Assembly (NCBI RefSeq): GCF_044647545.1
Contig: NZ_CP172818.1
Reading direction: 5' to 3' (one strand)
From: Escherichia coli
GTDB taxonomy: Bacteria; Pseudomonadota; Gammaproteobacteria; Enterobacterales; Enterobacteriaceae
Length of the DNA: 64,000 nucleotides
The translations under genes and the position numbers were made by a program. Positions within the stretch are counted from its first letter, which is position 1. Every line of letters begins with the position of its first letter. The notes under the pieces were generated by a model, which did no database searches, had not been told where the DNA came from, and worked only from the letters and a program-made list of their open reading frames with translations. Of the stretch, positions 18,353 through 44,396 are shown piece after piece.

Positions 18353-18556
18353 AACATACTCCGTTGTATTGTCTCTTCCATAAATCATTCACTTGATCAA
18401 TATTGTTGTTGTATTTATATGTGTTATGTTTTTCTGCTTAACTTTGGATTAAGATTTTCTAAAATAGCATAGCTGTCAGGTGGGTTACGAGCAATTCATG
18501 CTTTTTTAGGATGGTTGAAAAGCAGGAATATATTTCAACCATCCATAAATTATCTT

Positions 18557-38394: not shown

Positions 38395-38426
38395 AAAAAA
38401 CCCGCTTCAAAAAGCGGGTTTTTTAT
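38395..38426. terminator. Bidirectional intrinsic terminator between convergent tatE and lipA
   Basis: aaaaaacccgc ttcaaaaa gcgggtttttt: A-tract, stem, T-tract. Confidence 0.8.
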
Positions 38427-41956: not shown

Positions 41957-43168
41957 TTAACCAAACCAGTGATGGAACATTAATTTAATGTAATCAATGA
42001 TTTTGCCGAAGAAGTTGCCTTCCGGGATTTCTTGCAGCACAACCAGCGGGCGTTGTTCGATCGTTTTGCCATCAAGCTGGAAGTTGATAGTACCGACGAC
42101 CTGATTCTTTTGCAGCGGCGCATGCAATTCACTGCTGTTCAGCACATAGCTGGCTTTCAGATCTTTCATGCGGCCACGCGGAATGGTCAGATACACGTCT
42201 TTATCAACACCTAACGAAGCGCGATCAGAATCACCAAACCAAACCGGTTCAGAGGCGAACTCTTTACCTACTTTCAGTGGGTTAACGGTTTCGAAGAAAC
42301 GGAAGCCCCAGGTTAGCAGTTTTTTACTTTCGGCTTCACGGCCTTTAAAAGTACGTCCGCCCATCACCGCAGAGATCAAGCGCATCTGGCCTTCAGTCGC
42401 AGAAGCAACAAGGTTGTAACCTGCTTTGTCAGTGTGTCCGGTTTTGATGCCGTCGACATTCAGGCTGTTATCCCATAACAGGCCGTTACGGTTCAGCTGG
42501 CGAATACCGTTAAACGTAAATTCTTTTTCTTTATAGATCGAGTATTCATTCGGTACGTCACGGATCAACGCCTGGCCGATCAGCGCCATATCTCGCGCGG
42601 AGCTGTACTGACCATCAGCATCCAGACCATGTACCGTCTGGAAGTGGGTATTTTTCAGGCCCAGGGCGTTAACGTAGCTGTTCATCAAGCCAACAAAAGC
42701 GTCCTGGCTACCAGCGGCAAAATCGGCCATGGCGACACAAGCATCGTTACCCGATTGCAGGTTAATACCGCGGATTAGCTGAGAAACCGGAACCTGCATG
42801 CCCGGTTTGAGGAACATCAGTGAAGAACCTTTAAACACCGGGTTACCGGTGGCCCATGCGTCGTTGCCGATAGTGACTAAATCAGTTTCTTTAAATTTAC
42901 CGGCTTTCATTGCCTGGCCGATAACGTAACTGGTCATCATTTTGGTCAGGCTGGCAGGATCGCGGCGGACATCTGCGTTCTGTTCGGCGAGCACTTTGCC
43001 GGAGTTATAGTCAATCAGGATGTAGGACTCCGCATCGATCTGCGGTACACCCGGGATCATAGTTTTGATATTCAGGTCATCGGCATGTGCAGCAGAGATA
43101 AAGGCTGTGCAAAGAGCCGTGGTGAGCGCCAGGCGCTTCATGATACGAGCGGAAAAAATGGTATTCAT
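41957..43168 (-). CDS. dacA: D-alanyl-D-alanine carboxypeptidase (PBP5)
   Basis: 403 aa; signal peptide; active-site SxxK as SLTK. Confidence 0.96.
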
Positions 43169-43307
43169 GGTCTGAACTACGACATCCGTGATGGAATTAA
43201 AAAAAGTGCCCTACTATAGCAAATGCACTACCGGCAGGCATCTGACTTTCCGCGTGACTTTGTTAACGTCATTTACAGAAATTGACACATCAGATGCCTG
43301 CTTTACG

Positions 43308-44396
43308 CTACTGCGCGGTGGTAATAAATGACTGTAATTGGGCTTCGGTTTGCAAACGTTGCTGCAAGGTACTGGCTTCGGCTTTGCTGGCGAATGGGCC
43401 AAGCTGGATCCGCCAGACCGCGCCATTTTGAGTTACGCGACCGGGGACGCCGAACTTCTGTCCCAGTTGCTGTTGGTACTGTTGCGCACGAGCCTGATCG
43501 CTAACGGCCCCGACTTGCACCATAAAGTTGCCGCTGGCGCTTTGTGAGGCGGCTTGCGGTGTCACCATTGCAGGCGAGGTTGCAGGCGTTGTCGAGGGGG
43601 CTGTAACAACGGGCTGTGGTGCAGGTGTTGGTTCGCTGCCTTCCAGAACACCAGGCGCTAAGGTCGTTGGTGCACCGAGGAAACCGCTGCTGGTTACCGG
43701 CGCGCCGGTCGGATCTTCGCTTTTTAGCGTCGAATTACTGACCGGAAGAATGTCACCCTGCGGGCCAGACACTGAACTTGTTCCCGCGCCGCCGCTTAAA
43801 TCGGGAGGTGCAGGCAGGGCGTAAGTCTGTTTAGCAACTGTGGTACAGGCCATACCAGGACCAGAAAGCGAACCATCCTGGGCGACAATAATCGGATCGA
43901 TACGAACTTTGGTGTTGTTTGACGTGTTAAGACGGTCAGCTGCCGCGCGAGAAAGCGAAATAACGCGGTCGTTGCCGTAAGGACCGCGATCATTAATGCG
44001 CACCACGATCATTCGCCCGTTAGCCAGGTTAGTGATTCTGGCGTAGCTGGGGATCGGAAGCGTTGGATGGGCCGCCGTCAGCTGTGTCGGATCGAAAGCT
44101 TCGCCAGAGGCCGTCAGGTTACTGCCGGGTTCGGCATCATAGATTGCCGCCAGTCCCGCCTGGCTAAATCGAGACGGATCCTGCACGATTTTGTAGCTTT
44201 TACCGTCGCGCTGGTAATCCTGATTTGCCGTCGCGTTCAGTGGTTCGAAACGCGGGTCCGCCCCGCTAATTTCAACTATGGGGCCGTTACATACCGCAGG
44301 CTGCGGTACACTTACCGTCTGTTGCTGACCATCATCGCTTGTACATGCCGCGAGCATTCCTGCCGCGATGCAGATCCCGAGCCACTGCTTACGCAT
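43308..44396 (-). CDS. rlpA: Septal lytic transglycosylase lipoprotein RlpA (DPBB plus SPOR domains)
   Basis: 362 aa; lipobox LAACTS; Pro/Thr-rich linker; C-terminal SPOR-like region. Confidence 0.93.
   Translation of the reverse strand: MRKQWLGICIAAGMLAACTSDDGQQQTVSVPQPAVCNGPIVEISGADPRFEPLNATANQDYQRDGKSYKIVQDPSRFSQAGLAAIYDAEPGSNLTASGEAFDPTQLTAAHPTLPIPSYARITNLANGRMIVVRINDRGPYGNDRVISLSRAAADRLNTSNNTKVRIDPIIVAQDGSLSGPGMACTTVAKQTYALPAPPDLSGGAGTSSVSGPQGDILPVSNSTLKSEDPTGAPVTSSGFLGAPTTLAPGVLEGSEPTPAPQPVVTAPSTTPATSPAMVTPQAASQSASGNFMVQVGAVSDQARAQQYQQQLGQKFGVPGRVTQNGAVWRIQLGPFASKAEASTLQQRLQTEAQLQSFITTAQ

Follow-up and report, generated by a model that had tools for sequence, protein, structure and literature searches.

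The perfect 12-nt inverted repeat in the spacer between rlpA and dacA of Escherichia coli probably encodes the stem closing a large RNA hairpin with which the rlpA message ends; this hairpin would fix and protect the 3′ end and mark the boundary with the independent dacA promoter. Our verdict is that the hairpin is real and functional and that it represents a neat but ordinary kind of gene boundary. The evidence comes from the co-variation of the two arms among related species, the stability of the predicted fold, and published RNA 3′ ends that lie just beyond the stem.

The inverted repeat and its genomic setting

We analyzed a 64,000-nt stretch of E. coli DNA (the 64-kb window, on which all positions are numbered). 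Both rlpA and dacA lie on the minus strand, an orientation that was absent from the earlier sequence-only reading, and they are separated by 139 bp (43169-43307). The repeat that had been described in this gap was confirmed, with its arms, coordinates, and 44-nt separation as claimed; GCAGGCATCTGA (43234-43245) and TCAGATGCCTGC (43290-43301) are 100% complementary, and they do bracket the dacA upstream region. The genes and the parts of the predicted hairpin are as follows.

43308-44396, minus strand: rlpA open reading frame.
43308-43310 (read 43310-43308), minus strand: rlpA stop codon TAG (UAG), at the base of the extended hairpin.
43290-43301, minus strand: hairpin 5′ (left) arm, GCAGGCAUCUGA, which starts 7 nt past the rlpA stop; the variable arm, tracking its partner across species.
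43246-43289, minus strand: loop region of 44 nt, at approximately -40 to -83 relative to the predicted dacA start, with conserved primary-sequence motifs.
43234-43245, minus strand: hairpin 3′ (right) arm, UCAGAUGCCUGC, nearly invariant and holding the dacA -35 hexamer.
43223-43313, minus strand: predicted terminal structure of the rlpA mRNA, with a 13-bp main stem and weaker outer pairs that take in the UAG stop.
41957-43168, minus strand: dacA open reading frame.

Read in the sense of the genes, the order is UAG, 6 nt, the left arm, the 44-nt loop, the right arm, CCGGTAGTGCATT, TGcTATAGT, AGGGCAC, a T-run, a 30-nt leader, and ATG. Perfect 12-nt inverted repeats with a loop of at most 100 nt occur at three loci only in the window; first-order Markov shuffles gave a mean of 0.56 such repeats per 64 kb, and approximately 0.001 would be expected per 139-bp spacer. 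The 12-mer of the repeat is unique within the window. Of 5,426 complete E. coli genomes, 5,424 contain the spacer (≥95% identity), at a median of one place per genome, and the 88-nt hairpin region is ≥99% identical in 5,264 of the E. coli genomes. Because the spacer is single-copy in these genomes, the repeat is not a dispersed element, and we ruled out a REP sequence for the same reason. Two other perfect inverted repeats were noted in the window. The one at 38395-38424 (AAAAAACCCGCTT-caaa-AAGCGGGTTTTTT) is preceded by an A-tract and followed by a T-tract, the textbook form of a bidirectional intrinsic terminator, and the one at 18509-18544 (GGATGGTTGAAA / TTTCAACCATCC; arms of 12 nt) has a 12-nt loop and lies in an AT-rich stretch.

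Predicted fold of the sense-strand RNA

The RNA from the rlpA stop codon to the mapped 3′ end (described below) was predicted to fold with an energy of -36.1 kcal/mol (z = -6.26), and none of 200 shuffled sequences was equally stable. A separate calculation on the hairpin gave -33.2 kcal/mol (z = -5.2 versus shuffled sequence). The corresponding antisense-strand RNA yielded -25.7 kcal/mol, with the sense fold being 10 kcal/mol more stable. The stem comprises 12-13 bp, including 7 G-C pairs, and closes the 44-nt loop; the E. coli fold consists of 13 bp, a 7-nt internal loop, and 7 bp, such that the 13-bp stem together with the inner helices approaches two helical turns. The 3′ flank of the stem (CGGUAGUGCAU) is poor in U, with only 3 in 11 nt, and forms no U-tract, the upstream side offers only UAAA and no A-tract, and a consensus promoter/terminator scan found no canonical terminator on the minus strand. 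An Rfam scan of 42500-44000 returned only chance-level matches, none of which reached the gathering threshold; the sole match overlapping the hairpin was to the plant microRNA family MIR477 (16.4 bits versus a threshold of 65, E = 3.8).

Compensatory changes maintain the pairing of the arms

We retrieved 80 orthologous loci from other Enterobacterales by using DacA as the query, extracted the spacers, and aligned those of 46 Enterobacteriaceae species. The 12 pairs of the stem were formed in 82.9% of the alignment cells, compared to 28-39% when the partner strand was slid by 1-3 columns. Double-sided changes were observed in 7 of the 12 pairs (49 cells), and the covariation score of 0.255 (shuffled, 0.147) was reached by none of 500 shuffles. 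At pair 31-92, UA was present in 23 species, CG in 17, and UG in 3, whereas CA never occurred; this pair underwent at least 13 state changes on a neighbor-joining dacA tree, and the UA/CG switches are thus independent events. Further compensated arms were found in Mangrovibacter (GGCACCAG/CUGGUGCC) and Phytobacter (GGCACCUGA/UCAGGUGCC). Conservation in relatives, which had been proposed as a check on the repeat, was seen at the level of pairing kept by compensatory change across the 46 species. RNAalifold recovered six core pairs when applied to the hairpin region alone, and missed the long-range stem when applied to the full spacer alignment; it detected no conserved inner structure in the loop, and the inner helices are not conserved.

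The two arms differ in their conservation, with a mean column identity of 0.87 for the right arm versus 0.70 for the left (0.92 versus 0.80 in the core). GATGYC is kept at the -35 position of dacA even in Pantoea, Rahnella, and Yersinia, all of which lack the long-range stem. The simplest reading of these alignments is that the right arm would be held by its promoter role, while the left arm would evolve to stay complementary. Departures from Watson-Crick pairing were biased toward G·U over A·C, with 23 versus 13 independent events overall (p = 0.066) and 18 versus 7 in the nine core pairs (p ∼0.02). These wobble departures and the fold energies favor pairing on the sense strand, an asymmetry that is real but modest. 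The compensatory changes and the unequal arms indicate that the arms would pair in RNA of the rlpA/dacA sense strand, as opposed to serving as two protein half-sites.

The loop is conserved in another manner, with TTGTCA, TGTAAA, and CATTAACAAAGTCAYGCG.AAAGTC of the minus strand (43246-43289) retained in primary sequence across the 46 species. These motifs may represent DNA-level upstream promoter elements (activator or UP-like) or single-stranded RNA motifs. CpxR, CRP, ArcA, and LacI-family sites were considered for the loop, but the spacing is a misfit and none is proposed here. A 14-codon open reading frame (MTLTKSRGKSDACR; ATG at 43272 to TAG at 43228, minus strand) spans the loop and right arm, but its ATG is lost in Enterobacter and other genera and it is probably non-coding.

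Mapped RNA 3′ ends flank the hairpin

The spacers of K-12 and the window are identical save for one T in the T-run, so published K-12 coordinates transfer directly; for positions above the T-run, the window coordinate equals the K-12 coordinate minus 620,794. The following ends were taken from published Term-seq data (PMC7815308).

43223-43224 (K-12 664017/664018), minus strand: steady-state sense RNA 3′ end, ...GCCUGCCGGUAGUGCA(U)-3′.
43307 (K-12 664101), plus strand: weak antisense RNA 3′ end, ...GCCUGCUUUACG-3′, situated 6 nt past the hairpin within UUUACG.

In MG1655 grown in LB to an OD of 0.4, the sense end at 664018 averaged 91,306 reads (Adams et al. 2021, PMC7815308, Supplementary file 1). 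A second minus-strand end, at 664017, had 41,794 reads, with its assignment to LB at an OD of 2.0 being made from its position in the file (PMC7815308). These counts are comparable to those of neighboring ends (73,288 for the ybeD terminator and 84,415 for the SroC end; PMC7815308). The sense end falls 11-12 nt past the 12-bp stem, 9-10 nt past the CG-extended stem, and 2-3 nt past the last pair of the extended fold; this position is within the dacA promoter spacer, approximately 17 nt upstream of the predicted dacA start. Both sense ends were labeled “orphan” because they are 84-85 nt past the rlpA stop, beyond the 50-nt rule of that study (PMC7815308). In one growth condition the end was retained as a possible 5′-UTR event, a listing that reflects the presence of a start site no more than 200 nt upstream (PMC7815308). 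The antisense end at 664101 was supported by 1,166-1,788 reads and was present in all three growth conditions (PMC7815308). Thus, 3′ ends on both strands flank one hairpin and the RNA of both strands folds, as is characteristic of a bidirectional 3′-end former.

The right arm covers the dacA -35 box

The elements of the dacA promoter, both on the minus strand, are:

43236-43241, minus strand: dacA -35 hexamer ATGCCT, inside the hairpin 3′ arm and separated from the -10 element by a 17-bp spacer.
43213-43221, minus strand: dacA extended -10 element TGcTATAGT, invariant in the 46 species.

The combination of the ATGCCT -35 and TATAGT -10 elements was previously named promoter PdacA-3, and a fragment carrying it drives GFP (PMC9338883). 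TGcTATAGT and the leader up to the ATG are almost invariant in the 46 Enterobacteriaceae, with a distance of 42-45 nt from the -10 element to the ATG in all loci but one (47 nt). The dacA start is predicted at approximately 43206-43207. The consensus scan missed this promoter because of its poor -35 box; no other promoter-like sites were found on the minus strand in 43150-43460, where a looser scan identified the TATAGT promoter only. Since the right arm covers the dacA -35 element, upstream of the predicted start, the hairpin would be made only in transcripts arriving from rlpA, and it is unlikely to be present in the 5′ region of the main dacA transcript. The proposal in the sequence-only reading of an RNA stem-loop in the rlpA 3′ or dacA 5′ region was accordingly upheld for rlpA, by the fold, the covariation, and the mapped end just past the stem, and not for dacA.

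Two features of the dacA leader (43169-43207, minus strand) deserve mention. It is almost invariant in Enterobacteriaceae and has no Shine-Dalgarno sequence 5-10 nt from the AUG, the nearest GGA being 16 nt upstream; insertion of a Shine-Dalgarno sequence was reported to double the level of DacA (PMC9338883). The T-run at 43199-43205, corresponding to approximately +2 to +8 of the dacA transcript, has 7 T in the window and in most E. coli and 6 T in K-12 derivatives, which makes the initially transcribed region polymorphic in length.

Potential transcription from the opposite strand

The core of the dacA -10 element is pseudo-symmetric, reading TATAGT on the minus strand (43218-43213) and TACTAT on the plus strand (43212-43217).

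43212-43217, plus strand: predicted divergent -10 element TACTAT, sharing the pseudo-symmetric CTATAG core; a sequence inference.

A plus-strand start is predicted at approximately 43224, which would place the predicted divergent starts (∼43206 and ∼43224) 18 bp apart. This spacing is the commonest one between divergent starts at bacterial bidirectional promoters (PMC12825309), and an opposite-strand transcript upstream of dacA has been observed in vitro (PMC3141248). The predicted antisense start at 43224 falls on the mapped sense 3′ end (43224/43223), and an RNA extending from there to the antisense end (43224-43307) would be the exact mirror of the rlpA tail. Taken with the plus-strand end at 43307, the divergent start may point to a short antisense RNA of this kind, for which the palindrome would act as the stop. 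Separately, a perfect -35 hexamer, TTGACA (43282-43287, plus strand), is oriented antisense to rlpA and is followed after 16 nt by TACGCT (region 43282-43310); its complement TTGTCA is conserved across genera. The TTGACA/TACGCT pair may weakly promote antisense transcription into rlpA.

Arrangement of the spacer in other taxa

At every Enterobacteriaceae locus, the stretch that pairs with the -35 segment starts 1-12 nt downstream of the rlpA stop, and the arm duplex energies at these loci range from -16 to -33 kcal/mol (z = -1.9 to -8.5). The same architecture was found in Erwinia and Mixta, and Serratia has the same arrangement with a shifted 8-bp stem (CCGGCAGG/CCUGCCGG). At five loci (from Rahnella, Hafnia psychrotolerans, and one Enterobacterales bacterium), a canonical GGGGCYNNGGCCCC hairpin with a U-run directly follows rlpA, within the first 45 nt of the spacer, and replaces the long-range hairpin. 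Brenneria has a canonical terminator inside the loop of the long-range stem. Because that stem encloses the terminator, it would form there only in read-through RNA, which hints at a role in such RNA as well. From these comparisons, a structure at the 3′ end appears to be a general requirement of rlpA, with the long-range hairpin being the form used by the Enterobacteriaceae and Erwinia.

Nature of the 3′ end structure

We propose that the hairpin would close the 3′ end of the rlpA (mrdA-mrdB-rlpA) message. With the 5′ arm 7 nt past the rlpA stop and the 3′ arm over the dacA -35 element, the entire untranslated tail would be held inside one structure, and rlpA transcripts would extend approximately 11-12 nt beyond the stem and end in the spacer of the dacA promoter. 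Most likely, the hairpin would act as a barrier, such that RNA released or cut further downstream would be trimmed back to it by exonucleases. The structure would set the border between rlpA transcription and the independent dacA promoter, and the same palindrome would also terminate a weak divergent antisense transcript from the dacA -10 region. Formation of the primary 3′ end by Rho, by RNase E, or by hairpin-driven termination is possible, and the steady-state role of the hairpin would be the same in all three cases. A collision with polymerase bound to the dacA promoter was considered as a cause of the 3′ end and rejected by reasoning, as the stall would be expected far upstream of -17. 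We also set aside an alternative in which the left arm pairs near the dacA start (UCAGA...AUG), because the complementarity is not conserved, with UCUGACC present in other genera.

Among known systems, the hairpin best fits the terminal stem-loops that lack a U-tract and serve to set and shield the 3′ ends of mRNAs. Such stem-loops, located at precise steady-state 3′ ends of Rho-dependent or processed E. coli mRNAs, protect the message from PNPase and RNase II after diffuse termination downstream (Dar and Sorek 2018, PMC6061677). The rlpA structure resembles this class in being a stable stem-loop just upstream of a precise 3′ end, with few U residues after the stem and no A-tract before it, in its location just past the stop codon, and in not being a REP element (PMC6061677). 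It differs in its 44-nt sequence-conserved loop, in a 3′ arm that doubles as the -35 element of the next promoter, and in the flanking antisense 3′ end; we regard it as a probable member of the class. The 44-nt loop is far longer than those of typical terminal stem-loops, and the conservation of its sequence lies outside what our model accounts for. REP/BIME elements are likewise intergenic palindromes able to shield upstream mRNA from 3′ exonucleases, but the rlpA-dacA element is single-copy and confined to this locus, bears no relation in sequence to the REP consensus, and co-evolves with the dacA promoter. The bidirectional promoters described by Warman et al. (PMC12825309) share with this locus the CTATAG core of the dacA -10 element and the 18-bp separation of predicted starts; that likeness, however, concerns the neighboring promoter and not the repeat, and the antisense start here is a predicted one.

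The loops of intrinsic terminators typically contain 3-8 nt. The rlpA hairpin resembles a canonical intrinsic terminator in directly following the gene, with a 3′ end approximately 10 nt past the stem, and in possibly acting in both directions; it differs in having fewer than the ≥5 U in 8 that define a U-tract, in its 44-nt loop, and in its mapped end ...GUGCA(U). The absence of a U-tract, the size of the loop, and the empty terminator scan together exclude a canonical intrinsic terminator. One alternative is that the hairpin terminates transcription in both directions by a non-canonical, co-transcriptional route. Its folding would then dislodge polymerase approximately 10 nt past the stem despite the lack of a U-tract, perhaps aided by NusA/NusG, so that transcription of rlpA would end ahead of the dacA promoter and divergent antisense transcription would end ahead of rlpA. 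The precise ends on both strands around one hairpin would be explained, at 9-10 nt past the CG-extended stem on the sense side and 6 nt past the stem, within UUUACG, on the antisense side, and an element in this position, immediately ahead of a promoter, would keep that promoter from being occluded. In addition, Supplementary file 2 of Adams et al. lists no Rho-termination region near 664,0xx (PMC7815308), although the dacA promoter 17 nt downstream would mask any read-through. Against this, the flank CGGUAGUGCAU has few U residues, the terminator scan was empty, and the loop is far outside the usual range; moreover, efficient termination by E. coli polymerase is not known in the absence of a U-tract. 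RNase E reportedly prefers U at +2, and the context of the mapped end, GCA|UUUGC, is also compatible with an RNase E cut, making an endonucleolytic origin possible. On balance, we regard a non-canonical terminator as unlikely. The same GCA|UUUGC context is compatible with the hairpin acting in rlpA-dacA read-through or long-leader RNA, either as an RNase III/RNase E processing site or as an attenuator of dacA expressed from upstream promoters. Such a function would also agree with the near-two-turn length of the stem and inner helices, with retention of the end as a candidate dacA 5′-UTR event in one condition (PMC7815308), and with the terminator-enclosing stem of Brenneria. The TATAGT promoter nevertheless stands alone on the minus strand in 43150-43460, the inner helices are not conserved, and the RNase III supplementary tables examined contain no rlpA or dacA entries; we consider this role quite improbable.

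The sequence-only reading had also raised a pair of regulator binding sites. In this scenario the arms would serve a dimeric or looping regulator of dacA, such as BolA (YYGCCAGH), with one site on the -35 element and the other approximately 56 bp upstream. BolA was reported to bind the dacA promoter region (PMC4337573), the arms contain, as inverted copies, GCCTG (E. coli) or GCCAG (Cedecea, Buttiauxella, and other genera), and the right arm is almost invariant. However, its promoter role explains why the right arm hardly varies, given that GATGYC persists at the -35 box even in hairpin-less taxa, and a site pair leaves unexplained both the unequal conservation of the arms (0.70 versus 0.87) and the flanking positions, which co-vary through U·G intermediates that protein half-sites do not need. 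The centre-to-centre distance of 56 bp, or approximately 5.3 helical turns, would place the sites on different faces of the DNA. The suggested comparison to known operators produced only a loose resemblance of the arms to the BolA motif: ATGCCTGC of E. coli has one core mismatch and other genera have TGCCAG, and the motif is itself weak and of low specificity (P = 6e-3, with a one-mismatch match in 39.5% of all genes). The arms co-vary instead of preserving a fixed motif, and a regulator site pair is very unlikely. A final alternative is that the 85-nt rlpA tail accumulates as a stable 3′-UTR-derived regulatory or protein-binding RNA, paired with the mirror antisense RNA from the bidirectional dacA promoter and thereby coupling the expression of rlpA and dacA, both of them cell-wall genes. 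This reading was considered because the loop sequence is conserved and the Term-seq counts are as high as those of neighboring abundant RNA ends, and we assign it a low probability.

Implications

If the hairpin closes the rlpA message as we propose, a strongly conserved and previously unlabeled element would be annotated within a heavily studied cell-wall gene cluster, and the “orphan” Term-seq end would find its explanation as the genuine terminus of the rlpA mRNA. The locus would provide an example of one DNA segment under two constraints, in which the right arm stays a -35 box while the left arm stays complementary to it in the RNA. Mutations in the left arm, and in that arm alone, would leave the promoter intact, which would make the locus a convenient natural test bed for the function of U-less terminal hairpins. 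Edits made in this region during dacA promoter engineering or rlpA tagging can, by the same reasoning, alter the end of the rlpA mRNA.
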